In this document: one piece after another, positions 3,576 through 30,989 of the stretch
How positions within the stretch are numbered: the stretch's first letter is position 1
How the letters are laid out: each line of letters opens with the position of its first letter
From: Phycisphaera mikurensis NBRC 102666
GTDB taxonomy: Bacteria; Planctomycetota; Phycisphaerae; Phycisphaerales; Phycisphaeraceae
Direction of reading: 5' to 3'
DNA length: 32,000 bases
NCBI RefSeq assembly: GCF_000284115.1
Contig: NC_017080.1
Coordinates: forward strand, 30,001-62,000
Notes under the pieces: generated by a model
Told to the model about the DNA's origin: nothing
What the model saw: only the letters and a program-made list of their open reading frames with translations
Databases searched by the model: none
Program-made: the position numbers and the translations under genes

Positions 3576-4262
3576 ATGCGATCCGCTCTCCGACTCTTCG
3601 TGCCCCTCCTGCTCCTACCCTTGACCATGGCTGGAATCTCCTGCTCGACGTCACACGCCGCCCCGTCCGGCTTCCCCGCCCCGCCGGCCGAGCAGCCGGC
3701 GGGGGTGGAGGCGGTGAACGAGGAGGGCGAGGCCGTGGCGGTGCTCGCCGGGGGCTGCTTCTGGTGCACCGAGGCCGTCTTCGAGCGGCTGGCGGGCGTG
3801 AAGACGGTGGTCTCCGGCTACGCCGGTGGCACGGCCGAGGACGCGGACTACAAGAAGGTCTCCGGCGGGCTGACCGAGCACGCCGAGGCGATCAAGATCG
3901 TCTACGACCCGGCCCAGACGCGTTTCCTCGACCTGCTGGAGGTGTTCTTTGCGGTGGCCCACAACCCCACGCACGTGAACCGGCAGGGCAACGACCACGG
4001 TCCGCAGTACCGCTCGGCGGTCTTCTACGCCAACGACGCGCAGAAGGCGGCGGCGGAGGCGTACATCCAGGAAATCGACGCGAGCGGCGTCTACCCCGAC
4101 CCGGTGGCGACGAAGATGGAGCCGCTCAACCGCTTCTACGAGGCGGAGCCCTACCACCAGGACTACGCGGCGAACAACCCCGACAACCCGTACGTGCGGG
4201 GGGTGGGTCAGCCAAAGGTGGACAAGCTGGAGAAGAGCTTCCCCGAGCGCCTGAAGAAGTGA
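3576..4262 (+). CDS. msrA: Peptide-methionine (S)-S-oxide reductase MsrA with N-terminal signal peptide
   Basis: 228 aa. Catalytic GGCFWCTEAVF motif, and GPQYRSAVFY plus YHQDY motifs. The N-terminus MRSALRLFVPLLLLPLTMAGISCSTSHA looks like a secretion signal. Confidence 0.93.
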   Translation: MRSALRLFVPLLLLPLTMAGISCSTSHAAPSGFPAPPAEQPAGVEAVNEEGEAVAVLAGGCFWCTEAVFERLAGVKTVVSGYAGGTAEDADYKKVSGGLTEHAEAIKIVYDPAQTRFLDLLEVFFAVAHNPTHVNRQGNDHGPQYRSAVFYANDAQKAAAEAYIQEIDASGVYPDPVATKMEPLNRFYEAEPYHQDYAANNPDNPYVRGVGQPKVDKLEKSFPERLKK

Positions 4263-4269
4263 CCGCGCC

Positions 4270-4298
4270 CCCCGCCGCCGCTCCGACGGCGGGCGGGG
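4270..4298. terminator. GC-rich hairpin between convergent msrA and the 951-aa gene (putative bidirectional terminator)
   Basis: CCCCGCCGCCG-ctccga-CGGCGGGCGGGG forms an 11-bp stem with one bulge. There is no U-tract, which may be usual at this GC content. Confidence 0.4.
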
Positions 4299-7154
4299 TC
4301 AGCGGAGGGCGGCGGCGCGGATCGCGCGGAGGCGGGCGGCGGAGGCGGGACCGCCCAAGGCGGGGTCCTGGTCCTCGAGCTGCGCGACGGAGAGGCCGAC
4401 GCGGTCGACGCCTTCGCCCAGGGCGAGGTTGATCGAGAGCCGGCGGGCCCAGGCGTTCCAGAAGGCCGGCGGTCGCGTGCCGGCGAGGCCGCGGATCAAG
4501 CGGTCGTAGTACGGCGCGGCGCCGCGGGCGGCGGCGTCGGCCCCGGGCTCGTCGGTGAGCGTGAACGCGGTGCCGCCGGCGTCGCGGGTGCGGCGGACGC
4601 CCAGGGCGAAGCGGGCCTCGGCGGCGGCTTCGAGCACGCCGGCGTCGGCGGGGAAGGCGGCCTCCACGCCGGACTCCGCGAGGAAGGCGATGGCGCCGCC
4701 GGGGTCCCCCGAGCGGGTGAGGCCGTTGGCGTAAGCCAGCCGCCAGGGCAGCATGTCGGCTTCGGAGAGGCCGCGCCGGTTGGCGTCGGCCAGCAGCAGC
4801 GCCGCGAGCTGCACGGCGGAGGCGGAGACGCCGGCGGCCTCGTCCTCCAGCTCGGCGGCCCGGCTGGCGGAGGCGTCGCGGGCCCGCTCGGCCAGGGCGT
4901 CGGCCCGGGCCAGGAGGTCGGCGAGCACGCTCTTGACGACGCCGGCGGCGGCGGCGGGGTGGGCCTCCATCATCCCCGCGGCCTCGGCGGCGGCGGCGGC
5001 GGGCTCCCCGGCGGCGAGGAAGGCGGCGACGCGGAGCCCGGCGGCTTCGGCGAGCAGGCCGGGGACCGCGGCGGTGGCGGCGGGGTCGCCGCTGACCGAC
5101 GCGAGGCGGGCATCGAGGCCGTCGAGCCCGGCGGCGGCGGCGGAGGGGTTGCCGCGGGCGCTCTGGATGCGGGCGGCCGCGAGCGCGGCGCGGCCGACGC
5201 CGAGCACGGCGGCCGCGGGGTCGGCCCGGCCGCGGGCCCGGGCCTCGGCGGCGAGCCGCTCGGCGGTGGCCTCGGCGGCGTCGAGCAGCGTCCGCGCCGC
5301 TTCCCGCGAGGGCGCGGCGGCCGCGGCACGCTCCCGCGCGTCCAGGGACAGGCCGAGCGCGTCGAGCCGCTGCGGGTGGTCCGCGGGCACGAGCTCGTAC
5401 ACGGCCGCCGCTCCCGCATCGTCGCCGCGGAGGGTGTGGCCGGCGTAGGCCCAGTACAGCCGGTGGCGTTCGGCGGCGGGGGTCTCGGCGAAGCGGGAGA
5501 ACAGCAGCGACATCACCTCGGCGTAGCGGTCGGCGACCGGGCCATCGGGTCGGCTGGCCGAGGCCTGCGCCGAGGCGGCGAGGTCGGCGGCGCGGGCGAT
5601 CGCGGGCTCGGCCTCGGCGGACCGGGGGAAGTCGCGGGCGATCGCGAGCAGCGACGCGATCGACGCGTCGACGGCGGCGGGGTCGTCGGGCGAGGCCGCC
5701 GCGGTGGCGGCGGCGAGGTCGGCGGCGGCACCCAGGGCGGCGTCGCGCTCGACGCCTTCGGGCAGCGCGGCGGGGTCCCCCAGGCCGGACACCGCGGCGG
5801 ACGCGGCGGCGGCGGCCCGGGCGTGGTCGCCGGCGGCGAGGGCCTCGCGGGCGACGGCGGCGGCGACGCGGGGCGGCAGGCCGGCGGCTTCGACGCCGGC
5901 GCCAGCGGCGAGCGACGCCTGCCGCGAGCGGGCGAGCGCATCGAGCGCGGGCGGCAGGCCGTCGTAGGCGCCGGCCGCGGCGGCGGCGTCGCCCGCGGCG
6001 GCGGCGTGGCGGGCGGCGGCGTCGGCCACGAGCAGGGCCAGCATCGGGTCGCTGCTGCGGGTGGCGGCCGCGGCGGCGGCGGCCAGCGCCGCCTCCGCGG
6101 CCGCGCCGTCCTGGGTCGCGGCGAGCGCGAGCCTGGCGGTGACGGCGAGGCGGCCGGGCGGCAGCTCCGGCACGAGGTTGCGGAGCGTCGCGGCGGCGCC
6201 GGCAAGATCGCCCGAAGCGGCGTTGGCGCGGGCGAGCAGGAGCGAGGCGGCGGGGGCGAGCGGGCCGGGGTCGCCGTCGAGCAGGGCCCGGGCCGATCGC
6301 CGGGCGAGATCGAGCAGGCGCCGCCGCTCGGCGGCGGGATCGTCGAGGCGGCCGGCGAGCGGCACGGGCGGCGCGGCGTCGTGATACGGGTCGCCGGCGG
6401 GCAGCGTCGCCAGGCCGAGCGCGGCGGTGGCGACGCCAAGCGGCGCGCGCCGCTCGGCCACTCCCCGGAGCACGGCGTCGGCGAGCCCGGAGGCGCGGGC
6501 GTCGGCCTCGGCGGCGCGGTCGCGGCCGAGCGCGTTCCGCAGGCGGGCGGCGGCGGCGCCGGCCTCCTGCGCGGCGGCGAGCGCCTCGGCCAGGGCGGGG
6601 GCGACGGGGGCGGCTTCGCTCGGGGACGGCCGGCCGTACGCGACGGAGAGGTCGGCGTGGCGGAGCCGGCGTTCCAGCCGGCCGACGAGCAGCGCCTCGG
6701 CGAGGTCGGCGGCGAAGAGCGCCCGCTGGGGGTGGCCCGCCAGCGCCGGGTCGGTGGCGAGCTCGCGGAGCGCCGCGAGCCGGGCGTTCGATGCGGCCGC
6801 GGCCCGCGTGGCCGCGGCCCGCAGCGCGTCGGCGTCGCCCGCCGCGGCGGCGGCGCGGCCGGCGGCGTCGGCCGAGACCTCCGCCGCGTGGGCCCCGGCC
6901 GCCGCGAGCACCCGCGCGGTCGCGGGGTCGTCCAGCGGCGGGGCGTCGGCCGCCCAGCGCTCCAGGAGCGCCGGGAGCCCTCGCTGCCCGAGGTCCCGCA
7001 GCAGCCGGTGCTCGGTGAAGGCGTCGGTGGTGCCCGCGGCGGGCGCCGCCGACGCGCCCGGCGAGACGCCCGCTGCGATCAGGACGGTGGCGGCGTGGAG
7101 GAAGCGGTGGCGGAGCGCGTGGGGCATGGGCACGGGGTGTCGGCGTGGCGTCAC
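4299..7154 (-). CDS. Alanine-rich 951-aa exported or membrane-anchored protein, probably all-helical (TPR/solenoid- or TolA-like); last gene of the ExbBD-vWA operon
   Basis: Long ORF whose start overlaps the exbD stop (GTGA). N-terminus ...MPHALRHRFLHAATVLIAAGVSPGASAAPAAG is hydrophobic and contains His. Ala/Leu/Arg/Asp-rich throughout. The start is GTG at 7154 or ATG at 7127. Confidence 0.7.
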   Translation of the reverse strand: MTPRRHPVPMPHALRHRFLHAATVLIAAGVSPGASAAPAAGTTDAFTEHRLLRDLGQRGLPALLERWAADAPPLDDPATARVLAAAGAHAAEVSADAAGRAAAAAGDADALRAAATRAAAASNARLAALRELATDPALAGHPQRALFAADLAEALLVGRLERRLRHADLSVAYGRPSPSEAAPVAPALAEALAAAQEAGAAAARLRNALGRDRAAEADARASGLADAVLRGVAERRAPLGVATAALGLATLPAGDPYHDAAPPVPLAGRLDDPAAERRRLLDLARRSARALLDGDPGPLAPAASLLLARANAASGDLAGAAATLRNLVPELPPGRLAVTARLALAATQDGAAAEAALAAAAAAATRSSDPMLALLVADAAARHAAAAGDAAAAAGAYDGLPPALDALARSRQASLAAGAGVEAAGLPPRVAAAVAREALAAGDHARAAAAASAAVSGLGDPAALPEGVERDAALGAAADLAAATAAASPDDPAAVDASIASLLAIARDFPRSAEAEPAIARAADLAASAQASASRPDGPVADRYAEVMSLLFSRFAETPAAERHRLYWAYAGHTLRGDDAGAAAVYELVPADHPQRLDALGLSLDARERAAAAAPSREAARTLLDAAEATAERLAAEARARGRADPAAAVLGVGRAALAAARIQSARGNPSAAAAGLDGLDARLASVSGDPAATAAVPGLLAEAAGLRVAAFLAAGEPAAAAAEAAGMMEAHPAAAAGVVKSVLADLLARADALAERARDASASRAAELEDEAAGVSASAVQLAALLLADANRRGLSEADMLPWRLAYANGLTRSGDPGGAIAFLAESGVEAAFPADAGVLEAAAEARFALGVRRTRDAGGTAFTLTDEPGADAAARGAAPYYDRLIRGLAGTRPPAFWNAWARRLSINLALGEGVDRVGLSVAQLEDQDPALGGPASAARLRAIRAAALR

Positions 7155-7621
7155 TTCATCGCGACGCGGGTGTAGCCCGCGGCGACGGCGGCGTTGAAGG
7201 CGTCGACGGTGTGCTGCCAGCGCACCGCGGGGTCGGCCTCGATGAGGATCGGGTGGTCGCTCTCGTAGAGGGCGCTCGGGCTGCGGCCGGGCCCGCGGCG
7301 CTGCGCCGCCAGGTCGTCGCGCAGCTCGGCGACGCCGGCGTAACGCCGGCGGCCGCGGGTGATTACCGCGGCGGTGTCGTCGCCGGCCGGCACGGCGATC
7401 TCGATCACGACCTTCTGCACCGGCAGCTCGTCGAGCGGTGGCGGCTGGCCGGTGCCCCGCGGCAGCTGGGCCTCCAGCACGCCCTCGTCCACCTGGAAGT
7501 TCGCGGTGATGACGAAGTAGATGAGCAGCAGGAAGATCACGTCGATCATCGACGTGAGGTTCAGCTGGCCCACGCGGGCGGCGCCCCGGCCGCGGCGGGA
7601 TCTGGGGCGGGCGTCGCTCAC
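7151..7621 (-). CDS. exbD: Biopolymer transport protein ExbD/TolR family (copy 2)
   Basis: 156 aa. N-terminal TM LNLTSMIDVIFLLLIYFVI carries the conserved membrane Asp. The GTG start overlaps the upstream exbD stop (GTGA). Confidence 0.88.
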   Translation of the reverse strand: MSDARPRSRRGRGAARVGQLNLTSMIDVIFLLLIYFVITANFQVDEGVLEAQLPRGTGQPPPLDELPVQKVVIEIAVPAGDDTAAVITRGRRRYAGVAELRDDLAAQRRGPGRSPSALYESDHPILIEADPAVRWQHTVDAFNAAVAAGYTRVAMK

Positions 7622-8100
7622 CGGTCGGTCCCCGCGACGACGTCGATCTTGGCGACGCCCGCCGCCGTCACGGCCGCCATCACCGGGCGGACCTGGTCCT
7701 GGAAGAGCGCGGCGTCGGCGCGGAGCAGCACGCGGACGCCGGGGCGCCGCGCCACCGCTTCGCGGACGGCTGCGGTGATGCCGGCGGCGTCGCCGGGCTC
7801 GAAGCGGCCCAGCGCCCCCACCTGCACGAAGCTCGCGCGGCCGTCGTGGTTCAGCGGCTGCTGCGCGCGGCCGTCGCCGAAGGGCTGGGGCGCGATCGAG
7901 ACGATCAGCGTGTCGGCCTCGGGGGTCTCGCTGGTCTGCGGGTCCGAGGGCGTGGGCGGCAGCAGCGGCACCAGCTCGCTGGCGACGATGTTGTTCACGA
8001 GCATGAAGAACACGATGAGCAGGAAGGTGACGTCGATCAGCGGCGTCAGGTTCATCGTGGGCGTCACGCCCCGGCGTTTGGCGCTGCGGCGGGCGTCCAT
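7618..8100 (-). CDS. exbD: Biopolymer transport protein ExbD/TolR family (copy 1)
   Basis: 160 aa from the internal ATG (MDARRSAKRRGVTPTMNLTPLIDVTFLLIVFFML). The ATG shares one base with the exbB stop (TGATG). The longer ORF-track version (to 8382) overlaps exbB and was rejected. Confidence 0.88.
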   Translation of the reverse strand: MDARRSAKRRGVTPTMNLTPLIDVTFLLIVFFMLVNNIVASELVPLLPPTPSDPQTSETPEADTLIVSIAPQPFGDGRAQQPLNHDGRASFVQVGALGRFEPGDAAGITAAVREAVARRPGVRVLLRADAALFQDQVRPVMAAVTAAGVAKIDVVAGTDR

Positions 8101-8984
8101 CAGAAGTACGCCCCGTCGGCGGCGGGCGGCGCGGGCGCGGCCGGGGGGGCCGGAGGAGCCGGGGGCGGCGCGGGCGCGGGCGCGGGGGCGGGCGGCGCCG
8201 GGGCGGGAGCCGCGGCCGGGGCGGGCGGCTTGCGCTTCGCGGCCGCGGAACCCTTCCCGCTCGGCCGGAAAGGCCGAAGGATTGCTTCGGCCTCGAGCAC
8301 GGCGTCGGCCGCCAGCGCGTCCACGCGGTTGTGCAGCAGGGCGTACGCGGCCAGCGCCGGGATCGCGACGACCAGGCCCCACAGCGTCGTCACCAGCGCC
8401 GTGGAGATGCCGCCGGCGAGCTGCACCGGGTCCGGCGAGCCGCCGGAGGACACCAGCGACTGGAAGGCGACGATCATGCCGTAGACGGTGCCGAAGAGGC
8501 CCATCATCGGGGCGATGTTGCCGAGCACGTTCAGCGCCTCGATGGGCCGCAGCAGCTTGGCCGTCTCGGCGTCGCCGGTCTCCAGCAGCGTCCGCTCCAT
8601 CACCTCGTAGCCCGCGGGCGCCTCGACGAGCGCGGCGGCGGTCAGGTCGCCCAGCAGGCTGCCGTCCTTCTGCGCCGCGTCGAGCGCTTCGCGGAACTTG
8701 CGCTCGCCGAGCAGGCGCTTCAGCTCGGGCTTCAAGCCGGCCGGCAGCAGCGTCGCCCGGCGGAATTGCACGGCGTAGCGGATCGCCAGCGTCAGGCTGA
8801 TCATCGACAGCAGCACGAGCACCCAGATGAAGACAAGCCCCACCGGGTCGTCGCTCCAGAAGAACATCCCGAAGAAGGAGGTCTGCGTCGGGCCGGCGGG
8901 CGCGTCGCCGGGCTGGGCCGCGGCCGATGCGGCGGGGAGCAGAAGCAGCGGCAGGACCGGGAGGAGGCGGCGGGCGTGGATCAT
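8100..8984 (-). CDS. exbB: MotA/TolQ/ExbB proton-channel family protein with N-terminal signal sequence and C-terminal Pro/Ala-rich tail
   Basis: 294 aa. GNIAPMMGLFGTVYGMIVAF and GGISTALVTTLWGLVVAIPALAAYALLHNRV are typical MotA_ExbB TM2/TM3 motifs. The tail reads KRKPPAPAAAPAPAPPAPAPAPAPPPAPPAPPAAPAPPAADGAYF. Confidence 0.92.
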   Translation of the reverse strand: MIHARRLLPVLPLLLLPAASAAAQPGDAPAGPTQTSFFGMFFWSDDPVGLVFIWVLVLLSMISLTLAIRYAVQFRRATLLPAGLKPELKRLLGERKFREALDAAQKDGSLLGDLTAAALVEAPAGYEVMERTLLETGDAETAKLLRPIEALNVLGNIAPMMGLFGTVYGMIVAFQSLVSSGGSPDPVQLAGGISTALVTTLWGLVVAIPALAAYALLHNRVDALAADAVLEAEAILRPFRPSGKGSAAAKRKPPAPAAAPAPAPPAPAPAPAPPPAPPAPPAAPAPPAADGAYF

Positions 8985-8994
8985 GGGCGGGGGG

Positions 8995-9510
8995 TCATCG
9001 GGCGGCGGCGAGCCGGTCGAGCGTGGCGGCGTCGCCGCCGCGGACCAGAAGCGGCTCGGCCTCGAGGAGCAGGCGGTCCGCGGCGGCTTCGGCCTCGGGG
9101 CCGCCGAGCAGGCGGAGCGTGACGGCGGCCTCCAGAAGGGCCGGGCCGTGGAGCGGTCCGCCGGCGGGCCCGGCGGCGGCGGAGCGCAGGAAGGCGAGCG
9201 CCGCGTCCAGCCGGAGCGTCCGGGCCGCCCCCGCTTCGGCGGCCGCCCGTGCCCGGACCCGCAGGGCGACGCCGGCGAGCAGGTGGTGGCGGGCCCGGCC
9301 GTCGGCGTCCCCGGGCGGGCGGCGGTCCAGCGCGGCGAGGGCGGCCGCGGCCGCGGCGGCGTCGCCCGCCGCGGCCGCCCGCTGCAGCTCCGCCGCGGGG
9401 CGGTCGCCCGCGAGGGCCGCGGGGGCGGTCCACGCGGGCATCTCCCGCCCGAGCGCGGGCGTCGCGAGCAGCCCGACGGCCGCGAGAATCAGCAGGAGGT
9501 TCCTCTTCAT
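8995..9510 (-). CDS. Secreted Ala-rich helical protein (171 aa), hypothetical, possibly TPR-like
   Basis: Signal peptide MKRNLLLILAAVGLLATPALG. The ATG overlaps the upstream vWA stop (ATGA). The stop lies 10 nt before the exbB start. Confidence 0.65.
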   Translation of the reverse strand: MKRNLLLILAAVGLLATPALGREMPAWTAPAALAGDRPAAELQRAAAAGDAAAAAAALAALDRRPPGDADGRARHHLLAGVALRVRARAAAEAGAARTLRLDAALAFLRSAAAGPAGGPLHGPALLEAAVTLRLLGGPEAEAAADRLLLEAEPLLVRGGDAATLDRLAAAR

Positions 9511-10475
9511 CGCAGGCCCATGTCCTCTTCGCTCACGAAGGTGTACGTGCCGCCGGTCGCGGCGGCGATCTTCTCCAGCGTGCCCGCCTCGCCCGCGGCC
9601 TGCCAGCGATCCTGGTTCAGGAACTGGATCGTGTTGATCTTGGTGTTGCTGCGGTTCACCTCGGCGATCCGCTCCAGCAGGTCCGCCTGCTCGATCTGGT
9701 ACTCCGCCCGCCCGGTGATCTCATCGGACAGAAGAAAGACCAGCTGCGGCCGGTACCGCTCGAGCGCCTGCCGCAGCGCCGGCACCGGGTCCCCCGACCC
9801 GATCGCGTACACGTTGCCCGCGTCGAGGTCGATCCACGAGGCGACGTCGTTCTTGCGCTGCGTGCTCGCGGGCTGGAGCCCCGCCGGCGGCACCTCGCGG
9901 AAGGGCTCGCCCTCGAAGTCGCCGAAGAAGATCACCGCGAACCGCTGCTCGTTGCTGAGCTTTCGGATCGAGGCCTTGAGCTCCTGGATCACGAAGGGCA
10001 GCTCCGCCACGCCGCCGCCGGAGGCGTCGATGAGGAAGACCAGCTCGCGGGCGTCGCCGCCGCGGCTGCCCATGAACGTGGCGGCGAGCTGCGCCGGCGG
10101 CGCCGCGGGGGGGGGCGGCGGCGGCGGCGGCGGGCCGACGGCCAGGGCCGGCAGCGGCGGCGCGGCGGGCGCCGCGGGCGCGGGCGGCGGCGGGACCGGC
10201 GGCGGTGGCACGGCCGAGGGCACCGGGGGCGGTGTCGCCTCGGTCGCGGGCGTGGGCGTGGTCACCACCACCGCGTCGTCGGGCGTGTCGGCCAGCTCCA
10301 GGAGCGGCGAGACGTCCTCCTTCTGCGCCTGCACGACCGTCCAGACCGCAAGCCCCGCGACGGCGATGACCAGGGCGTGCGCGACGATGGACACCACCCA
10401 CGGCATCGCCCGCGTGAAGAAGTCCGCCTCGCGCGGCGGCACGCTCCGGCCGCTGTTCGTGATTCCCTCGGCCAT
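9507..10475 (-). CDS. Membrane-anchored von Willebrand factor A (vWA) domain protein with TonB-like N-terminal TM helix and poly-Pro spacer
   Basis: 322 aa from ATG 10475, with SD GGGGGAG 7 nt upstream. TM helix PWVVSIVAHALVIAVAGLAVW carries an SxxxH pattern. A Pro-rich linker includes P9. The vWA core is ELVFLIDASGGG...RFAVIFFGD...LVFLLSDE. Confidence 0.85.
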   Translation of the reverse strand: MAEGITNSGRSVPPREADFFTRAMPWVVSIVAHALVIAVAGLAVWTVVQAQKEDVSPLLELADTPDDAVVVTTPTPATEATPPPVPSAVPPPPVPPPPAPAAPAAPPLPALAVGPPPPPPPPPAAPPAQLAATFMGSRGGDARELVFLIDASGGGVAELPFVIQELKASIRKLSNEQRFAVIFFGDFEGEPFREVPPAGLQPASTQRKNDVASWIDLDAGNVYAIGSGDPVPALRQALERYRPQLVFLLSDEITGRAEYQIEQADLLERIAEVNRSNTKINTIQFLNQDRWQAAGEAGTLEKIAAATGGTYTFVSEEDMGLR

Positions 10476-10629
10476 GACGCGTCTCCCCCGGGGCATCAAC
10501 CTTACCGGGCACCCGGCTGGACCGGCGGGCACGCGGCGCCGGCGACGCCCGGGACCCCGCCCGGAGCGGGGCGGTCCGCAACCCCCGCTGCGCGAGGCAC
10601 GACCGCTTCGCACGCCCGCGCCGCCCCGA

Positions 10630-11754
10630 TCAGAAGCCCACGAAGCGGTGCGTCCCCCCGGTCACCGCGCTCATCAGCTCCAGCGTCGGCTTCCCGCCGT
10701 CGGCGGGGGCGGCGGCGCGGTCGACGAACTGGACCGTGTGGATCGCGGTCTCCGCGGCGACCCGCGTGGCCGCGGCAACCAGCCGCACCCGGGTGCCGGC
10801 GGGATCGACCCGGCCGTCCACCTGGTCGGACAGCAGGATCACCGTGTCGGGTTCGAGGGCCAGCGCCGCCTCGAGCGCCGCCGCCGCGTCGGCGCGGCCG
10901 GCGGGGAGCACGTGGCCGGCTTCGGGCGAGACGAAGGCGGCGCTGGCCCGCAGCAGGTCGCGTCGCGCGGCGGCCATGCGGCCGGGCGGCACCGCCACAG
11001 CCCGGCCGTCCAGGAAGAAGACGACGGCGTAGGACTGGGCCGGGCCGAGGCTCAATAGCGACCTCTCCAGCTCGCGCTGCACCGAGGCGAAGCTGTCGAT
11101 GAGCGAGCCGCTCGCGTCGATGAGGTAGACCGTGCGCCAGCCGGCGGGCAGGCCGAAGAAGGCGCCCGTCTCGAATTGGGCACGCCCGGCCCGCGGGACC
11201 GGCTGGGTGGTGAGCTCGGCCTCCCCGGCGGCGGGAGCCGGAGCCGAGGCCGACGCGGAGGCCGGGCCAACGGCGGACGCCGCCTCGGGCCCGGCCTCCC
11301 AGCGGACCTCGCCGAAGCCGCCGCGGCCGTCGTCGATGCGGTGCCGGGTCGGCCCCCGGGAGACGAGGCCCGCCGGAGCCGGGGCCGGGGTTGTCGCCGC
11401 CGCTGTCGCGGCCGCGGCCGCCGGCGCGGCGGGCCGGGCCTCCGCCGCCGCGGGCAAGCCGGCGCCGGCGGCGGCGGCGGCGGGCCCCGGAGCCGCCCGC
11501 TTGCCCAGCGGCACCAGCGACGGCCCGGCCGCCGGGCCGGTGGATGCCCGGGCGATCGGGTGCTCGCCGCCGAGGCCCAGCGAGACGCCGATGAGGGCGG
11601 TCGCGGCGAGGCCGATCACCAGGTGTGCGGCGAGGGCGCGGTGCGTGCCGCGGGCGGGTTGGGGGTCGTGCGGGTCGGTTGCCAAGGGAAGCCTCGGGGA
11701 AAGATGCGGTCGGTGGCGGCTTTCATCGACCACGGCGCGGGCGTGGCGCCACAC
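10630..11754 (-). CDS. Membrane-anchored vWA domain protein (second paralogous architecture)
   Basis: His-containing TM helix HRALAAHLVIGLAATALIGVSLGL, then an Ala/Pro-rich linker. The vWA core RTVYLIDASGSLIDSF...YAVVFFLDG...VILLSDQVDG has an intact DxSxS MIDAS start. The GTG start at 11754 is uncertain. Confidence 0.8.
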   Translation of the reverse strand: MWRHARAVVDESRHRPHLSPRLPLATDPHDPQPARGTHRALAAHLVIGLAATALIGVSLGLGGEHPIARASTGPAAGPSLVPLGKRAAPGPAAAAAGAGLPAAAEARPAAPAAAAATAAATTPAPAPAGLVSRGPTRHRIDDGRGGFGEVRWEAGPEAASAVGPASASASAPAPAAGEAELTTQPVPRAGRAQFETGAFFGLPAGWRTVYLIDASGSLIDSFASVQRELERSLLSLGPAQSYAVVFFLDGRAVAVPPGRMAAARRDLLRASAAFVSPEAGHVLPAGRADAAAALEAALALEPDTVILLSDQVDGRVDPAGTRVRLVAAATRVAAETAIHTVQFVDRAAAPADGGKPTLELMSAVTGGTHRFVGF

Positions 11755-11824
11755 GCGGGGCGCGGTCGGCGCCGCGGTGGCGGGGTCCCACCGGCCCGGA
11801 GAAGACGCCCCACCGCCGGGCCGC

Positions 11825-12424
11825 TCAGCCGGCCGCGGCGAGCACCTTGTCCACGTACGCCCGGGTCATCGGACCCGCGTGCGCCGCGACGAGCCGCTCG
11901 GAGCTCATCTGCGGGTTCTCGCGGAGCAGCCTCGCCACGCGGGTCGGGCCCATGTGGTACGCCGCGACGGCGAGCCGCCGGTCGCCGTCGAAGCGCTCCA
12001 GCAGGTAGGCGAGGTAGCGGCTGCCGACCTCCACGTTGTGCACCGGGTCGAAGAGGTCGCCCGCCTCCATCCCGAAGCGACGCTGCGCTTCCTTGTGCGT
12101 CATCGGCATGATCTGCATCAGCCCGTGGGCGCCGGCGGAGGACACGGCATCAGGGTTGCCGCCGCTCTCGCAGAGCACCACGGCGCGGAGCAGCGCCGGG
12201 TCGAGGCCGTGCCGGGCGGACGCGTCGTCGAGCAGGTCCGACCAGTGCGACACCGTCCAGCCGCCGGCGGGGGCCCCGCGGCCCGCGTCGCCGCCGCCCC
12301 GCCACGCCAGGCCGATCGCGACCAGCAGCAGCGCGACGCCGGCGGAAGCCGCCAGCAGCCGGAGCGTGCCGCCGGGCCGCTCCGCCAGGTGCGCCCGCCA
12401 GCCGTTGCGGCCGCGACGCCTCAC
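11825..12424 (-). CDS. Lytic transglycosylase (SLT domain) with N-terminal membrane anchor
   Basis: SLT motifs CESGGNP, GLMQIMP and AAYHMGP. TM helix LRLLAASAGVALLLVAIGLAW. I prefer the GTG at 12424, which has GGGAG 6 nt upstream. The ATG at 12613 would overlap ftsY by 74 nt. Confidence 0.85.
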   Translation of the reverse strand: MRRRGRNGWRAHLAERPGGTLRLLAASAGVALLLVAIGLAWRGGGDAGRGAPAGGWTVSHWSDLLDDASARHGLDPALLRAVVLCESGGNPDAVSSAGAHGLMQIMPMTHKEAQRRFGMEAGDLFDPVHNVEVGSRYLAYLLERFDGDRRLAVAAYHMGPTRVARLLRENPQMSSERLVAAHAGPMTRAYVDKVLAAAG

Positions 12425-12539
12425 CGGCGGGCTCCCGCCCGCGGGGCGCCGCGGACCGTGCGGCCCGACGCCGGTTGAGGCCCGCGGTCCGCGGAAGCCC
12501 GGCGCCGCGGAGCGTCGCGCGTGCCCGGCGGCGACCCGC

Positions 12540-13472
12540 TCACGAGAACAGCGCCTCGACGAAGGCCGCGGGCTCGAAGGGCGCGACGTCGGCGGGCGTC
12601 TCGCCGAGGCCAACGAACTTCACCGGCAGGTTCAGCGCCTCGCGGATCGCGACGACGATGCCGCCCTTGGCGGAGCCGTCGAGCTTGGTGAGGAAGATGC
12701 CCGTCACCTCCGTCGCCTCGCTGAAGACCCGCGCCTGGTTCACGCCGTTCTGGCCGGTGGTCGCGTCGATCACCAGCAGCACCTCGTGCGGTGCGCCGGG
12801 GATCTGCTTGGCCACCACGCGGCGGATCTTGGAGAGCTGGTCCATCAGCGGCTTCTGCGTGTGCAGCCGGCCGGCGGTGTCGAGGAGGAGCACGTCGACC
12901 CCGCGGGCGACGGCGGCCGCGGCCGCGTCGAAGGCCACCGCCGCGGGGTCGCCGCCCTGGCTCCCTCGCACCACCTGCACGCCGAGCCGCTCGGCCCATA
13001 CGCCCAGCTGCTCGACCGCGGCGGCGCGGAAGGTGTCGCAGGCCGCGAGCAGCACGGTCTGCTCGCGGTCCCGCAGCACCTTGCAGAGCTTCGCGATGGA
13101 GGTGGTCTTGCCGGCACCGTTGATCCCGGCCACGAGGATCACGGTCGGGCCGGCGCCCGGGGCCGCCGCGGCGAGCGTGCGGTCTTCGTCGGGGAAGTAC
13201 GCCACGAGCTGCTCCTTGAGCATCGGCAAAGCCTCGTCGCCGGTGGCGACCTCGCCGCGTTCCCACATCGCCTCCAGGTCCTTCCGCAGCTCGATCGCCG
13301 TCTTCACGCCGACGTCGGCGCTGATCAGCGCCTTCTCCAGGTCCCGGAGCACGGCCTTGGACAGGGGCTTGCCCAGCAGCACACGCTTGATCGCCCCGCC
13401 CGTGGCGGAGCCGGCGCCGCCGCGCGAGAGGCCCTTCTTCAGGGTGTCGACGACGGAGCGGAAGAGGGCCAC
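12540..13472 (-). CDS. ftsY: Signal recognition particle receptor FtsY (short form, NG domain only)
   Basis: 310 aa. GINGAGKTTSIAKL (G1), DTAGRLH (G3), TKLDGSAKGG (G4). GTG start. Confidence 0.95.
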   Translation of the reverse strand: MALFRSVVDTLKKGLSRGGAGSATGGAIKRVLLGKPLSKAVLRDLEKALISADVGVKTAIELRKDLEAMWERGEVATGDEALPMLKEQLVAYFPDEDRTLAAAAPGAGPTVILVAGINGAGKTTSIAKLCKVLRDREQTVLLAACDTFRAAAVEQLGVWAERLGVQVVRGSQGGDPAAVAFDAAAAAVARGVDVLLLDTAGRLHTQKPLMDQLSKIRRVVAKQIPGAPHEVLLVIDATTGQNGVNQARVFSEATEVTGIFLTKLDGSAKGGIVVAIREALNLPVKFVGLGETPADVAPFEPAAFVEALFS

Positions 13473-13532
13473 GGGGCGGAGCAGCGACGGGAGGAACGGG
13501 GGACGACGGAGGGCGGGAGGCGGCCCGCGGGT

Positions 13533-14477
13533 TTAGGCGTCGCGGCGGGCGGCGGCGGCGGACCAGGGGTCGGCGGGGGCGTCGGGACCGGGGTCCGCGT
13601 CCCGCCCTCGCTCCGCCGGCGGCTCCGCCCGGCGGGCCTCGGCCTCGGCGGCCTGCCGCTCGCGCTCCTCGCGGAGCTCCTGGGCGTCGCGCTTCGGGCC
13701 GACCTTCGCGGCCATCTCGGCCTTCCGCTGGCGGAAGCGTTCGCGCTGGCCGCGGCGGGCCTCGGCGGCGCCGGCGGGCGGCGGCTTCTCGCCCCGGCGG
13801 ACGGGGCCGGCCGCGTCACCCGCCGCCGCCGCCCCGGGCGACGCGCCGCGGGCGATCGCGTCGAGCACGGCGTTCACGAAGCCGGGCGTGCGGTCCTCGC
13901 CGAAGGCTTTGGCCAGCTCGACCGCCTCGTCGAGGACCACCGCGGGGGGCGCCCGCCGCGTCGCCAGCTCGTGGTGGGCGAGCCGGAGGATGGCGCGGTC
14001 GACCGGCGGCTGGCGGAGCGTCGGCCACGCCGGCACCTGCGCCACGACGGCCGCGTCCGCCGCCTGGTGGCCGGCCCAGGCGGCGAGGGCCAGCGCGACC
14101 GCGGCTTCCTTCGCGGCGTCGGTCTGCTCGGCGTGGCCGTCGGGCTCGTCCTCGTCGTCGAAAGGCTCGTCCAGCGCCTCGAGCAGGCGAGCGGCCGGGG
14201 CGTCGGGCTCGGTTCCGAGGAGGTAGAGGGCCTGCACCGCGAGGCGGCGGACGGAGCCGGGGTCCACGCGGGGCGACGGAGCCGGCCGCGCGTCCGCCGG
14301 CGTCGGCGCCGGCGGGGGCGTCTCCGCGGCGGGCCGGGGGCGCGGCGGGTCCGTCGGCGGCAGCGGCGTTCCCGCGGCCTCCCCGGTCGCCGCACCGGGC
14401 CCGGGCGGCCGCTGCAACGCCGCCCGCAGCCACGGATCCTCCGCCGCCGGCTCTGATTTCGCGGTCTCTTCGGGCAC
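13533..14477 (-). CDS. nusB: Transcription antitermination factor NusB with long N- and C-terminal low-complexity extensions
   Basis: Core RRLAVQALYLL...VDRAILRLAHHEL...PPAVVLDEAVELAKAFGEDRTPGFVNAVLDAI is NusB-like. The start is uncertain: GTG at 14477, or GTG at 14267 just before the core. Confidence 0.8.
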   Translation of the reverse strand: MPEETAKSEPAAEDPWLRAALQRPPGPGAATGEAAGTPLPPTDPPRPRPAAETPPPAPTPADARPAPSPRVDPGSVRRLAVQALYLLGTEPDAPAARLLEALDEPFDDEDEPDGHAEQTDAAKEAAVALALAAWAGHQAADAAVVAQVPAWPTLRQPPVDRAILRLAHHELATRRAPPAVVLDEAVELAKAFGEDRTPGFVNAVLDAIARGASPGAAAAGDAAGPVRRGEKPPPAGAAEARRGQRERFRQRKAEMAAKVGPKRDAQELREERERQAAEAEARRAEPPAERGRDADPGPDAPADPWSAAAARRDA

Positions 14478-26854: not shown

Positions 26855-27832
26855 TCAATCCGCCGCCCCGCCCGGCGCCTCGCCCCGCGGCCGGATCACC
26901 CGCACGTCCATCTGCGGGAAGGGGATGGCCAGGCCCGCCGCGTCCAGGTGCGTCTTGACCGCCCGCGTCAGCGCCTCGTGAACCGGCCAGTAGCGCGACT
27001 TCTCCGTCCAGAAGCGGACCTTCCACGCGACCGCCGAGTCGCCGAGGCCGTCGAGGAAGACCTGGTGCCCGCGACCCTCGCCGTCCACGCGGTCCGCGGC
27101 GAGGGAATCCGCCGCGGCGTTGAGCACCTCCCGGGTCCGGTCCAGGTCCGCGTCGTAGGCGACGCCGACGGGCACCTCCACCCGGCGGTGCTCGTGGAAG
27201 GTCACGTTCTCGATCTTCGCCCCGTAGATCTCGCCGTTGGGGACGAGGATGCGGCGGTTGTCGAAGGTGTCGAAGGTCGTGGTGAACAGCTCGATCGCGT
27301 CGACCTTCGCCGTCAGCCCCGCCGCGGAGACCACGTCGCCCACCTTGAACGGCCGGAACACCAGCAGCATCACCCCCGCCGCGAAGTTCTGCAGCGTGCC
27401 CGAGAGCGCCAGGCCGATCGCGAAGCCCGCCGCCGCGATCATCGCCGCGAAGCTGGTCATCGGGATGCCCGCGTAGCCCAGCGCCGTCAGCACGCCGAGC
27501 AGGAACACGGCGTAGAAGACCAGCTTCGCGGCGAACCGCACCAGCGTCTCCTCGATCCGGGCCCGCCGCGCCGCCTTCGCGACGAAGCCCGAGGCCACCT
27601 TCGCCAGGACCGCCCCGCCCACCAGGAGGGCGACCGCGACCCCCGCCGGCACCAGGAAGCCGGTGACCAGCGGCCAGGCCGCCTCCAGGTCGCCGCGGCG
27701 GAGGCCGTCGAGGGCGACGAACAGCGTGTCCGCCGCGCGGCCCGCGAGGGCGTCGGCGCCCGCGCCGGCCGCGTTCAGGGGGGAGGGATCGGGGTCGGCC
27801 TGGGCCAGCGTGGCAGGGAGGATCGGCGGCAT
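26855..27832 (-). CDS. mscS: Small-conductance mechanosensitive channel (MscS family)
   Basis: LLVFRPFKVGDVVSAAGLTAKVDAIELFTTTFDTFDNRRILVPNGEI is the MscS pore/beta-domain signature. The ATG at 27832 is preferred over the start at 27919. Confidence 0.88.
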   Translation of the reverse strand: MPPILPATLAQADPDPSPLNAAGAGADALAGRAADTLFVALDGLRRGDLEAAWPLVTGFLVPAGVAVALLVGGAVLAKVASGFVAKAARRARIEETLVRFAAKLVFYAVFLLGVLTALGYAGIPMTSFAAMIAAAGFAIGLALSGTLQNFAAGVMLLVFRPFKVGDVVSAAGLTAKVDAIELFTTTFDTFDNRRILVPNGEIYGAKIENVTFHEHRRVEVPVGVAYDADLDRTREVLNAAADSLAADRVDGEGRGHQVFLDGLGDSAVAWKVRFWTEKSRYWPVHEALTRAVKTHLDAAGLAIPFPQMDVRVIRPRGEAPGGAAD

Positions 27833-27938
27833 CGTCCCCCGGTTTCGGCACGACGCCCGCGGGAAGGCCACCGCCGTGCCACACTGCCGCCCCGGGGGCC
27901 AGCGGGCCCCTCCCCCCACCCCCCAGGAACCGCGGCAG

Positions 27939-28397
27939 ATGAAGATCGTTCAGGAGTTCAAGGAGTTCATCCTCAAAGGCAACATGGTCGACCTCGCGGT
28001 CGGCATCGTGATCGGCGCCGCCTTCAGCAAGGTCGTCACCACCCTGGTGGGCAGCGTCATCATGCCGCCCACCGCCTTCCTGATGGGCGGCGTCGACCTC
28101 GCCTCCAAGAAGACCCTCCTCATCGAGGAGCTCCGCGAGGGCGACACGCACCCCGTCTACCAGAACACGGTCGAGAAGGACATCCCCGCGGTCTACCTCG
28201 AGTGGGGGGCGATGCTCCAGGCTCTCTTCGAGCTGCTCGTCGTCGGCCTCGCGATCTTCGTCGTCATCAAGGCCATCAACGCGATGCGGAAGAAGCAGGA
28301 GGAGGCCCCCAAGGAGGAGCCGACGCCCGTGGAGGTCGAGCTGCTGCGGGACATCCGCGACGAGCTGCGCAGCCGCGGCGGCCCGCCGCCGGCCTGA
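27939..28397 (+). CDS. mscL: Large-conductance mechanosensitive channel MscL
   Basis: MKIVQEFKEFILKGNMVDLAVGIVIGAAFSKVVTTLVGSVIMPP is near-canonical for the MscL N-terminus and TM1. 152 aa. Confidence 0.93.
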   Translation: MKIVQEFKEFILKGNMVDLAVGIVIGAAFSKVVTTLVGSVIMPPTAFLMGGVDLASKKTLLIEELREGDTHPVYQNTVEKDIPAVYLEWGAMLQALFELLVVGLAIFVVIKAINAMRKKQEEAPKEEPTPVEVELLRDIRDELRSRGGPPPA

Positions 28398-28489: not shown

Positions 28490-29380
28490 TCAGGCCCGCC
28501 GGCGACGCAGCAGCGCCAGCCCGCCGAGGCCGAGCACGGCCGCGGCCGTCGGCTCGGGCACGACGGTGAGGTCGCGGATCAGGTCGCCGGTCGTGATCGC
28601 GCCCAACGAGGTGGCGACACCGGTGTCCAGGTCGATCGTGTAGAGCGCCGAGTTCGGGCCGCTCTGCAGGTTCGCGTACGCGATCCCGGTCGCCCCGGAG
28701 ATGTCCAGGCCCAGCTCGTTGGTCAGCGGGCTCACGCCCAGCGAGCCGATCGTGTTCAGCGTGCCCGCGTTGTTCGCGACCGTCACCAGCACGCCGAGCT
28801 TCTGGTCGATGCCGAACTGCTGCGTGGTCGTCGCGCCCGCGACGCTGTTCGTGTACGCGATGCCGGCGATGTTCGGGTCGGCCCCCTCGTTCGCATCGCC
28901 CGCCGCGTAGAAGACCGGGGTCTTCTCGACGGGGCCGAGGTACTGCCCGCTGTCGCCGCTGACGACGCGGTTGTTGTCGGTGTCGCTGATGATCCGGGCA
29001 AACTCGCCGGACATGAAGGCCGGGTTGAAGTCGAACGCGAAGCTCGTGCCCCGAAGCCGCGGGCTGAACGCCGCGAAGGGCGTCGCCTCGAAGGTGTCGG
29101 TGTCGAAGGTGTAGAGCCGGTTGGTGGAGCCCAGCAGGTAGATCTCGTCGGTCGCCGGCCGGTAATCGATCGCGAGCAGGTTCTCGTTGTTCGCCAGGCC
29201 GGTGACCGCCCCGCCGTCGATCGACACGCTCGGCGCCGCGCTGTCGAACACCGTGACGCTGTTCTGCGTCGTCAGGCCGTAGATCAGCTCCGCCGAGGCG
29301 GCGGAAGTGACCCCCACCGCCGCGATCGCCAGGCCGGCGGCGGCTAGGGAGCGGGTGGGATGACTCGTCGGGTTCTGCAT
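28490..29380 (-). CDS. DUF4394-like secreted protein with PEP-CTERM sorting signal
   Basis: 296 aa from ATG 29380, with AGGAG 6 nt upstream. Signal peptide SLAAAGLAIAAVGVTSAASA. LLAIDYRPATDEIYLLG is a DUF4394-type motif. The C-terminus VPEPTAAAVLGLGGLALLRRRRA is PEP-CTERM. Confidence 0.85.
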   Translation of the reverse strand: MQNPTSHPTRSLAAAGLAIAAVGVTSAASAELIYGLTTQNSVTVFDSAAPSVSIDGGAVTGLANNENLLAIDYRPATDEIYLLGSTNRLYTFDTDTFEATPFAAFSPRLRGTSFAFDFNPAFMSGEFARIISDTDNNRVVSGDSGQYLGPVEKTPVFYAAGDANEGADPNIAGIAYTNSVAGATTTQQFGIDQKLGVLVTVANNAGTLNTIGSLGVSPLTNELGLDISGATGIAYANLQSGPNSALYTIDLDTGVATSLGAITTGDLIRDLTVVPEPTAAAVLGLGGLALLRRRRA

Positions 29381-29529
29381 CAGGTTCTCCTGCGGGGGGG
29401 AAGGACTGCGGCCACCGCGGGCTCGCAACGGATGGTGGATATCCCGAGACGGGGAATCCACCACGGTGAACCTACGCGGCACCCCCCGCCCCGGATGCAC
29501 CCCACCCCCGAGAAGTTTTCTCCCCAAAG

Positions 29530-29700
29530 CCGCCGCCCATCCAGCCCCCTCGCGCACAAGGCAGACAAAGCGGCGTCGCCGCTCAGCTCTCGCCGCCACC
29601 CTGGCCGCGCGAGCTGCGTGGCGACGCCACGCTGTCCGAGCCGCCAATCCAGCTCCCTCGCGCACAAGCCAAACAGAGCGGCGTCGCCGCTCAGCTCTCG
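29530..29700. repeat. REPIN-like repeat array, 3' flank of the RAYT gene (about 1.5 units of a 107-108-bp repeat)
   Basis: Palindrome P1 GCGTGGCGACGCCACGC lies at 29616-29632. Palindrome P2 AGCGGCGTCGCCGCT lies at 29569-29583 and 29677-29691. The array ends 32 nt from the RAYT stop. Confidence 0.9.
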
Positions 29701-29722
29701 CAGCCAATCCCGCTCGATGCCC

Positions 29723-30325
29723 TCACGCTCCTTCGCGCAATCCGCGGGCGCGCTCCACCGGGACGAACGCACCACGCTCCACCGACTCCCCCAGCCGCCA
29801 CCGCTCCACCAGCCGCTGCCCCTCCGCGGGAGGCCGCAGCCCGCGGTCGATATCCCAGAACCACCCCGGGTGGTCCGGCAGGTATGCGAACCGCTGGAAG
29901 CGATACTTGCGGCGGCTCTGAATCCGGAAACAATCTCCGCCCTTCGAGAACAGAGATCCACCCCCCGCCCCATCCCCCCGCTCCCGCCTCAGCCCCGCCG
30001 AGACCGAACGCTTCATCGCCGCCCGCACCCGCTCCGCCTCCCGCGTGCCGTGCCACGCCACGAGCGTGTGCAAGTGCGACGCCGAGCTGCCCACCGCGAT
30101 GAGGAGCAGCCGCTGGCGGGCCGCCGCCTCTTGCAGCCAACCGATGCACGACCGCTGCAACGCGGGCGTGCATACCACCTCCGCCCTCTTCATCAAGGCC
30201 CGGTGATGCCGAGCCCGAGCCTCGTTCGGCGGCCGGGTCACCCGCCACCGACGGTCGTGATGCCCCGCCTCCCGGTCGACCATCCAGGACCCGTACGTGT
30301 GGAGCGTGATGAGAAACAGCGGCAC
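29723..30325 (-). CDS. IS200/IS605-like HUH Y1 transposase, REP-associated (RAYT-like)
   Basis: 200 aa with a GTG start. The N-terminus LFLITLHTYGSW matches the family. HUH motif is H84-L85-H86 (SSASHLHTLVAW). Candidate catalytic Tyr148 (QRFAYLPDHP) is 62 residues after it. Palindromic repeat arrays flank both sides. Confidence 0.75.
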   Translation of the reverse strand: MPLFLITLHTYGSWMVDREAGHHDRRWRVTRPPNEARARHHRALMKRAEVVCTPALQRSCIGWLQEAAARQRLLLIAVGSSASHLHTLVAWHGTREAERVRAAMKRSVSAGLRRERGDGAGGGSLFSKGGDCFRIQSRRKYRFQRFAYLPDHPGWFWDIDRGLRPPAEGQRLVERWRLGESVERGAFVPVERARGLREGA

Positions 30326-30417
30326 AGCGACAAACCTACCAAAGACCGGTCATTCGCGAGCGGCCGCGGTTCCCCTCTCATACACCGCCCTCACACGCAA
30401 GCCGAAGAAACCGCCGC

Positions 30418-30738
30418 AGCCACCCCGGCCGCGGTAGCTGCGTGGCGACGCCACGCTGTCCGACTCCCCATCCAGCTCCCTCGCGCACAAGGCAGACAGA
30501 GCGGCGTCGCCGCTCCGCTCTCGAAGCCACCCTGGCCGCGCTAGCTGCGTGGCGACGCCACGCTGTCCGAGCCGCCGATCCAGCTCCCTCGCGCACAAGC
30601 AGACAGAGCGGCGTCGCCGCTCAGCTCTCGGAGCCAGCCTGGCCGCGGTAGCTGCGTGGCGACGCCACGCTGTCCGACTCCCCATCCAGCCCCCTCGCGC
30701 ACAAGGCAGACAGAGCGGCGTCGCCGCTCAGCTCTCGG
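30418..30738. repeat. REPIN-like repeat array, 5' flank of the RAYT gene (3 units, period 107 bp)
   Basis: P1 lies at 30440-30456, 30547-30563 and 30654-30670. P2 lies at 30500-30514, 30607-30621 and 30714-30728. P1 and P2 cores (GGCGACGCC / GGCGTCGCC) are reverse complements, so each unit is an inverted REP doublet. Confidence 0.92.
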
Positions 30739-30779
30739 TCGTCAGAGTTCCGGCCCCAACGATCTCGAAGCGCTCGCCC

Positions 30780-30989
30780 TCAGCCGAACCTCGCGCTGAG
30801 CCCGAAGAAGCCCGTGTGGTTCTTGGCCCGGACCCGCCGAGCGGTCGCGTCCTCCGCCACCCGGAGCGTCCGCTCTTCCGCTTCTCGAACCAGCCGCGCG
30901 TTGACCTCCTTCGCGGTCTCCGGCGTGGCCTTGGAGACGCCGTCTTCTGCCCCACCGGACGGATCAGGCTGGTTGTTCTTCGCGTTCAT
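30780..30989 (-). CDS. Small hypothetical protein (69 aa)
   Basis: MNAKNNQPDPSGGAEDGVSKATPETAKEVNARLVREAEERTLRVAEDATARRVRAKNHTGFFGLSARFG. The ATG overlaps the 3' end of the upstream 256-aa gene by 26 nt. No recognisable motif, so it could be non-coding. Confidence 0.35.
   Translation of the reverse strand: MNAKNNQPDPSGGAEDGVSKATPETAKEVNARLVREAEERTLRVAEDATARRVRAKNHTGFFGLSARFG

Follow-up and report, generated by a model that had tools for sequence, protein, structure and literature searches.

A predicted vWA force transducer operon with an ExbB-ExbD-ExbD motor in Phycisphaera mikurensis

Gram-negative bacteria have two classic routes, Ton and Tol, by which inner-membrane energy reaches the outer membrane. 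An operon in a 32,000-nucleotide stretch of the Phycisphaera mikurensis NBRC 102666 genome (contig NC_017080.1, positions 30,001 to 62,000; the whole of this stretch is hereafter called the window) raises the question of what a motor of this kind would act through when its neighbours are neither TonB nor TolA. Seven genes are involved, encoding two membrane-anchored vWA proteins (vWA2 and vWA1), a small exported protein (p171), ExbB, two ExbD proteins (ExbD1 and ExbD2) and a large exported protein (p951). A first-pass annotation of the locus had proposed that the vWA proteins take the place of the energy transducer, and had regarded the combination as one that was not a described system. Our answer, given with moderate confidence, is that the locus encodes a module for force transduction across the envelope, driven by proton-motive force (PMF) and belonging to the "vWA force transducers". 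The best-supported arrangement, judging from the sequences and structural models, is one in which vWA1 and vWA2 would serve a heteromeric ExbB5-ExbD1-ExbD2 motor as its arms, equivalent to TonB/TolA.

Hidden Markov model searches on the seven proteins recovered the MotA_ExbB, two ExbD and VWA_3 domains, and neither TonB_C nor TolA, as had been anticipated. ExbB matches Pfam MotA_ExbB at 7e-28, and ExbD1 and ExbD2 match Pfam ExbD at 4.8e-15 and 1.9e-17, respectively. In NCBIfam, ExbB scores 72 bits with the TolQ model (equivalog cut-off 221) and 62.7 bits with the ExbB model, both under their cut-offs, and the TolR model gives 40.7 bits against an equivalog cut-off of 127.3. Because the TolQ and ExbB scores lie so far under the equivalog cut-offs, the motor fits by sequence neither the standard TolQR nor the standard ExbBD type. 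The membrane Asp that had been read in both ExbD copies was confirmed by alignment to E. coli ExbD, since LIDV of ExbD1 and MIDV of ExbD2 both align with FIDV. The parallel statement that the ExbB channel motifs are intact stands only in part: alignment to E. coli TolQ (8odt) places the Thr residues of the second and third transmembrane helices in register, whereas a Thr is found at the position of TolQ E173 / ExbB E176. ExbD1 and ExbD2 probably form a heterodimeric plug. ExbB also has an N-terminal extension resembling a signal peptide (MIHARRLLPVLPLLLLPAASAAAQP) and a Pro/Ala-rich C-terminal tail of about 45 residues.

The presence of two anchored vWA proteins was upheld by a Pfam VWA_3 match in vWA1 (1.4e-7, over the curated cut-off), by the paralogy of vWA2 with vWA1 (BLASTP 5e-16, 33% identity; vWA2 has no Pfam match of its own) and by AlphaFold 2 (AF2) models in which both proteins display a membrane helix and a vWA fold. 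In the vWA1 model the helix spans residues 19-50 and the vWA alpha/beta domain residues 144-322, with a predicted local distance difference test (pLDDT) above 90; confidence is low across most of 51-140 and the pLDDT falls below 50 for much of 53-139, a region that includes a 90-residue linker with 36% Pro. The vWA2 model shows the same build on a longer scale, with a helix at 38-64 carrying His45, a disordered Ala/Pro-rich linker of about 140 residues (65-204, pLDDT below 50 over 66-197) and a vWA domain at 205-374 with a pLDDT above 90. Foldseek matches were vWA domains as well, namely ITIH1, 4fx5, ANTXR2 and alpha2-delta.

Two short motifs on the membrane side of the linker give these proteins their resemblance to energy transducers. 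Column counts over 98 sequences of the vWA family show strong conservation of the helix (P25 in 89/98, W26 in 89/98, S29 in 82/98 and W45 in 90/98), and 96 of 103 vWA open reading frames (ORFs) encode a hydrophobic helix with a His. The vWA1 motif PW..S29...H33 corresponds to the S-x3-H half of the SHLS motif of TonB and TolA. At 24 residues past the helix His there is a proline-flanked strand with seven residues between its two prolines, P57-LLELADT-P65 in vWA1 and PIARASTGP in vWA2, whose positions are kept across the family (P57 91/98, L61 64/98, S62 67/98, P65 91/98). In E. coli TonB, the D-box P-ISVTMVT-P is captured by a pair of ExbD periplasmic domains (PMC10907165).

The claim that no such system had been described does not hold. 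A recent computational study (PMC12204202, Mol Biol Evol 2025) reports "vWA force transducers" encoded beside TPR-tolQ-tolR-tolR genes in bacteria of the PVC group, Planctomycetes included. According to the same study, these proteins are tethered to the inner membrane by a helix bearing the SHLS/His motif, which is followed by a disordered linker containing a motor box and, at the C-terminus, by a vWA domain, and they occur in Proteobacteria, Planctomycetes, Verrucomicrobia, Bacteroidetes and Rhodothermaeota; the function of the class is given there as unknown and no deletion phenotypes are reported in it. The P. mikurensis proteins agree with this description in the S-x3-H single membrane helix, the motor box after the helix, the disordered linker and the vWA fold, and in vWA1 the His and the P57-x7-P65 strand are as far apart as the His and the "stator box", which the study puts at about residues 55-60. 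On the helix His, the linker and box, the vWA fold, synteny and relatedness, we assign the locus to this published, computationally predicted class.

Relatedness was assessed against Tichowtungia aerotolerans, whose transducer sequences were taken from the supplement of the same study and whose locus is designated L076 here. The vWA1 profile matches Tichowtungia transducer 1 with an hhalign probability of 96.7% (E 3e-10). The window ExbB scores 94.6 bits with its Tichowtungia counterpart vs 43.6 bits with E. coli TolQ, ExbD1 scores 40.0 bits with the first Tichowtungia ExbD vs 20.5 with the second, and ExbD2 scores 31.7 bits with the second vs 18.1 with the first, so that the two ExbD proteins are reciprocal best matches of their positional counterparts. 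By these scores ExbB, ExbD1 and ExbD2 are assigned as orthologues of the Tichowtungia ExbB, first ExbD and second ExbD. Since each ExbD best matches the Tichowtungia copy in its own position, the ExbD duplication predates the split between Phycisphaerae and Kiritimatiellota.

Both loci contain two transducer paralogues, one ExbB, two different ExbD and at least one large TPR gene, although their order differs: vWA-vWA-small-ExbB-ExbD-ExbD-TPR in P. mikurensis, and TPR904, a 110-aa protein, vWA781, TPR938, a 262-aa protein, ExbB, ExbD, ExbD, vWA476 and vWA474 in Tichowtungia. The vWA domain is compact in Phycisphaerae (about 180 residues), whereas that of Tichowtungia carries insertions and is about 330 residues long. 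No homology was detected between the small proteins that precede ExbB in the two loci (hhalign 0.3-7% over the TPR and small-protein pairs), and the Phycisphaerae middle-protein profile described below reaches 32% with TPR938, for which we claim no homology. The third Tichowtungia vWA protein, of 781 residues (P0163, L076 2267-4612), has the same N-terminal helix (AAAVSIVVHILLILLAGS), and its gene stands ahead of the motor, flanked by the two large TPR genes.

How stable the association between vWA genes and motor is can be seen in the close relatives. A pattern scan built from an eight-sequence vWA1 alignment, taking one genome per species, gave 69 loci, nearly all from Phycisphaerae metagenome-assembled genomes (MAGs) together with two cultured strains, Poriferisphaera sp. 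WC338 and ZRK32; the window proteins were then searched by phmmer against all ORFs of these loci. Four of the 69 end at a contig edge and were left out, leaving 65 informative loci, and in 59 of these ExbB lies downstream of the vWA gene on the same strand. Since 59/65 loci keep it, the arrangement is far beyond chance, and the gene order of the P. mikurensis operon is indeed conserved. It runs vWA (one to three copies), an optional middle gene, ExbB, ExbD, ExbD and a large TPR gene. Two ExbD genes are present in 46 of 51 informative motor loci and three in 4, and the large TPR gene follows ExbD2 in 39/44 informative loci. One vWA copy is found in 35 motor loci, two in 20 and three in 4, with orthologues of vWA2 upstream of vWA1 in L007-L012, L025 and L029. 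All four loci with three ExbD genes (L050, L055, L056 and L068) have at least two vWA copies, vs 24 of the 59 motor loci, counts that are too small for this link to be firm. A wider HMMER search with the family profile returned 985 cluster representatives (50% identity, metagenomes) at E <= 1e-30.

The coordinates of the operon are given in Table 1. The seven ORFs were all found on the minus strand, in the order and at the places first reported, and every junction described from vWA1 onward is present when read directly from the sequence: ATGA between vWA1 and p171, TGA, 10 nt and ATG between p171 and ExbB, TGATG between ExbB and ExbD1, and GTGA both between ExbD1 and ExbD2 and between ExbD2 and p951. 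For vWA1, whose product is 100% identical to PSMK_00360 of P. mikurensis NBRC 102666, homologues favour a start at ATG 10475 or at GTG 10442, the latter being the PSMK_00360 annotation. The GC content of the window ranges from 65 to 84%, and a promoter and terminator scan of 3900-13600, where it is 75-84%, gave nothing informative. Within the p951 gene (window 5001-7000) GC reaches 83-84% and all frames on both strands are open for hundreds of codons; because every frame is open there, ORF lists over this region are mostly spurious.

Table 1. Genes of the predicted force-transduction operon and the adjacent transglycosylase gene, in window coordinates
Feature	Position	Strand	Remarks
vWA2	10630-11754	minus	ORF
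vWA1 (PSMK_00360)	9507-10475	minus	ORF; open from first in-frame start codon 10613
p171	8995-9510	minus	ORF
ExbB/TolQ-like	8100-8984	minus	ORF
ExbD1/TolR-like	7618-8100	minus	ORF
ExbD2/TolR-like	7151-7621	minus	ORF
p951	4299-7154	minus	ORF
Lytic transglycosylase (SLT domain)	11825-12613	minus	Pfam SLT 1.5e-30; neighbour only

The two remaining proteins of the operon, p171 and p951, have no Pfam match of their own, and their identity was approached through relatives. The first, of 171 aa, is exported, Ala-rich and helical, with a signal peptide that can be read off the sequence (MKRNLLLILAAVGLLATPALG). It matches residues 232-358 of the L005 middle protein (BLASTP 3e-10) and the profile of the middle-protein family (hhalign 86%), and corresponds to a short form, signal peptide plus C-terminal ~130 residues, of a 350-450-aa protein encoded between vWA and ExbB in most relatives, whose orthologues show weak TPR matches. 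The middle gene is optional, being absent from L003, L035 and L070. The second, of 951 aa, is exported, has 33% Ala and consists of helical repeats, and its orthologues in relatives are TPR proteins of about 930-960 aa. The low-GC Poriferisphaera orthologue (L070 13016-15796; phmmer 2e-30) matches TPR_14 at 1.8e-9 and TPR_19 at 8.9e-9, both over the cut-offs. p951 is therefore a likely periplasmic scaffold or adaptor, and the exported TPR proteins, the only other conserved components, are candidates for adaptors or partners.

The vWA heads themselves were predicted to carry a metal-ion-dependent adhesion site (MIDAS), which holds for one of the two. The motif is conserved in the family (D150 94/98, S152 92/98, S154 91/98, D251 95/98) and is present in more than 90% of the Phycisphaerae members, whereas the Tichowtungia proteins lack it (DADKR). 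vWA2 keeps an intact DASGS, but vWA1 has lost the second Ser of the MIDAS: its motif is DASGG, where 91/98 relatives have DASGS, a Gly154 found in only two sequences, and Ala157 takes the place of an Asp present in 90/98 relatives. As the vWA1 site is degenerate and vWA2 keeps DASGS, the two arms may differ in ligand binding.

If the vWA proteins are arms, a partner might be expected nearby, and one could ask whether the arms in fact serve import, with the vWA heads energising an unrecognised outer-membrane transporter in analogy to Ton. Pfam searches of the seven proteins, the transglycosylase and 20 selected window ORFs recovered no TonB_C, TolA, TolB, Pal or TonB-dependent barrel, which bears out the view that canonical TonB/TolA, TolB/Pal and receptor genes are missing among the ORFs scanned. 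Clustering of the ORFs flanking the 59 motor loci likewise brought up neither a conserved barrel or TonB nor any other envelope partner, so that canonical TonB and receptors are not a constant neighbour of the module. The recurrent flanking clusters were an aldo-keto reductase (24 loci), a rhomboid-like protein (14) and a GFO_IDH oxidoreductase (10), none of them plausible as an outer-membrane partner. At L005 an autotransporter-type barrel gene (PF03797, 17121-19487) follows directly after the large TPR gene, although it is not among the conserved clusters. This barrel and the TonB-like architecture speak for import; no barrel gene is conserved beside the module in the 59 loci, however, and vWA domains are not known to have a Ton-box-like mode of strand pairing, so we regard import as improbable. 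The lytic transglycosylase immediately upstream of the operon had been linked to the machine in the first-pass annotation. The gene is present, but an SLT homologue occurs in 0/69 related loci and we rejected it as a part.

Against the force-transducer reading as a whole stand several observations that have to be set beside the evidence above. In vWA1 only half of the SHLS motif is kept, its L and S positions being A40 and V44, and vWA2 keeps only the His; the hydrophobic register of the D-box-like strand differs from that of TonB. No homology was detected between the large TPR proteins of Phycisphaerae and those of Tichowtungia (hhalign 4-7%). Because the vWA1 MIDAS is degenerate and the Tichowtungia proteins are without one, metal-dependent gripping of a ligand, as judged from these motifs, cannot be a universal mechanism. 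The published support for the class is computational (AlphaFold 3 models and synteny; PMC12204202), and a literature search for later experiments on it came back empty. The TonB search covered the 32-kb window, and the genome may encode a canonical TonB elsewhere. Finally, 6 of the 65 informative loci (L024, L028, L041, L044, L069 and L075) have room for a motor but none, and their vWA proteins may use a motor in trans or work without one. The vWA genes at these loci carry the same His-bearing helix, and at least three of the loci are additional copies, the same MAG having a motor-linked locus as well (L024/L022, L075/L014 and L069/L067).

An alternative is that the two halves of the operon are uncoupled, the ExbB-ExbD-ExbD motor serving a TonB or TolA encoded elsewhere and the vWA and TPR proteins forming a separate Bat-like set that merely shares the operon. 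The pairing of two anchored vWA proteins with TPR content does resemble BatA/BatB/BatC, the motor-less vWA paralogue pairs at L044, L024 and L075 show that members of the family need not be encoded with the motor, and the window limit of the TonB search leaves room for a distant transducer. A metaproteomic study also groups one Phycisphaerae population with taxa rich in TonB-dependent transporters (PMC7029141). The resemblance to Bat, which had been pointed out before, is real in domain content, membrane-anchored vWA proteins standing beside TPR proteins as in the BatA-BatE aerotolerance operon of Bacteroides and spirochaetes, but goes no further: none of the seven proteins matches a Bat-named Pfam or NCBIfam family, and neither MoxR nor DUF58 was matched among the window ORFs scanned, so we rejected a Bat identity. 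Bat operons are not known to be linked to ExbB or ExbD. Moreover, a protein that was simply anchored in the membrane would hardly be expected to keep a near-invariant His helix and, at TonB-like positions, a proline-flanked strand, synteny is kept in 59/65 loci and across phyla (Tichowtungia), and start/stop overlaps tie vWA1 through to the motor genes. We thus consider the uncoupled arrangement unlikely, and retain the vWA proteins as the putative transducers of the adjacent motor.

The same proposal of a coupled motor would also be compatible with a role in surface adhesion or gliding as in the Agl-Glt system, the vWA heads acting as, or connecting to, CglB-like adhesins. A heteromeric stator of one ExbB and two distinct ExbD would resemble AglR/AglQ/AglS, vWA domains are typical adhesion modules, and PMC12204202 itself suggests gliding. 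We looked for traces of such a machine and found no Glt, Cgl or other gliding genes in the scanned window ORFs or the conserved flanks; the sole match to GltJ, at 17.9 bits vs a cut-off of 450, lies in the Pro-rich linker, and an Agl-Glt identity was rejected. Besides, a vWA domain on an inner-membrane tether of 90-140 residues cannot reach the cell surface alone, and P. mikurensis is reportedly a flagellar swimmer rather than a glider. A gliding or adhesion role therefore has a slim chance of being correct.

Two other systems share parts with the locus. The TPH-vWA family has an inner-membrane-tethered vWA domain beside a TolQ-like gene, as here, and in PMC12204202 it is described with an Asp-bearing, ExbD-like trans-pore helix (TPH) and with tolQ only, tolR and exbD being absent. 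The vWA helices of P. mikurensis carry a His but lack Asp, and the operon contains two exbD genes, so this identity was discarded. The Zorya anti-phage system was also dismissed, its only trace being a 17.2-bit ZorA match on the channel region shared by MotA and ExbB; a PADLOC scan returned no other matches and gives no reading as a defence system.

Set against the classic systems, the module agrees with Ton in belonging to the 5:2-type proton motor family with conserved Asp and Thr, and in the build of its transducer, which has a His-bearing helix at the N-terminus, then a strand resembling the D-box and a linker rich in Pro. It differs from Ton in that the C-terminal domain is vWA instead of TonB_C, in the two different ExbD and in the Thr at the ExbB E176 equivalent, and it is unaccompanied by a TonB-dependent barrel in the scanned window ORFs or the conserved flanks. 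With Tol-Pal it shares a TolA-like transducer topology, an ExbB that fits the TolQ model slightly better than the ExbB models, and a TPR protein in the operon, as CpoB in tol-pal. In contrast to Tol-Pal, it shows no Pfam or NCBIfam match to TolA domain III, TolB or Pal and has two different TolR-like subunits, and its TPR proteins are far larger than CpoB.

From these comparisons the following mechanism can be proposed. ExbB would form a pentameric proton channel in which ExbD1 and ExbD2, each with a proton-binding Asp, make up the heterodimeric plug. vWA1 and vWA2 would stand in place of TonB/TolA, their His-bearing membrane helix docking outside the ExbB ring, and the proline-flanked strand about 24 residues past the His would be held by the ExbD periplasmic domains in the manner of the TonB D-box. 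The Pro/Ala-rich linker of 90-140 residues would span the periplasm, and the C-terminal vWA domain would grip a partner located in the outer membrane or close to it, through the MIDAS site present in most members and, here, in vWA2. The PMF-driven motor would then pull on the partner held by the vWA head. p951 and p171, or the middle protein of relatives, would probably be periplasmic adaptors or scaffolds, for which CpoB offers a possible analogy. The original idea that the vWA proteins are the energy transducers is thus supported at its core by synteny, the S-x3-H motif, the D-box-like strand, the linker, the vWA fold and the lack of a nearby TonB, but it loses its claim to novelty, the transglycosylase and a MIDAS in vWA1.

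The annotated neighbours of the operon in the window encode pyruvate dehydrogenase E1, MsrA, FtsY, NusB, RibBA, UDP-glucose dehydrogenase, a heptosyltransferase, MscS, MscL and a DUF4394 protein. The MscS-type gene (minus strand) and the MscL gene (plus strand) lie back to back at 26855-28397; the listed MscL ORF has about 95 extra N-terminal residues over the MscS gene and, because of this overlap, its true start is probably near 27948. The DUF4394 gene (28490-29707, Pfam 2.2e-62) is followed by three ORFs without a Pfam match, at 29360-30544, 30549-31016 and 30964-31734. No publication on this locus came up when the literature on Phycisphaera was searched for TonB or ExbD.

As to the biological role, a Tol-Pal-like function in envelope maintenance or outer-membrane tethering is a speculative guess, made because the supplement of PMC12204202 records no pal for Planctomycetes and because the neighbours in the window are housekeeping genes. 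A bolder reading, possible but on balance doubtful, is that the module joins Ton and Tol as a third class of PMF-driven force transduction across the envelope, with a function of its own, and that it would substitute for the missing Tol-Pal in tethering or constriction in Phycisphaerae. MIDAS-bearing vWA heads on TonB-like arms would then pull an outer-membrane or cell-wall partner. This lineage divides by binary fission without a known FtsZ.

The locus places the vWA force transducer class in a cultured, fully sequenced planctomycete, and the 59 related loci show it to be a stable, widely conserved operon in Phycisphaerae. To the published description it adds the near-invariant helix His, the D-box-like strand, a MIDAS in most Phycisphaerae and two ExbD paralogues whose separation is older than the divergence of Phycisphaerae and Kiritimatiellota. 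The conserved His, strand and MIDAS offer specific positions to mutate and cross-link. A third class, in which the same "arm" would bear a different "hand", has so far been a computational prediction of 2025 (PMC12204202), and would widen the picture drawn from Ton and Tol.

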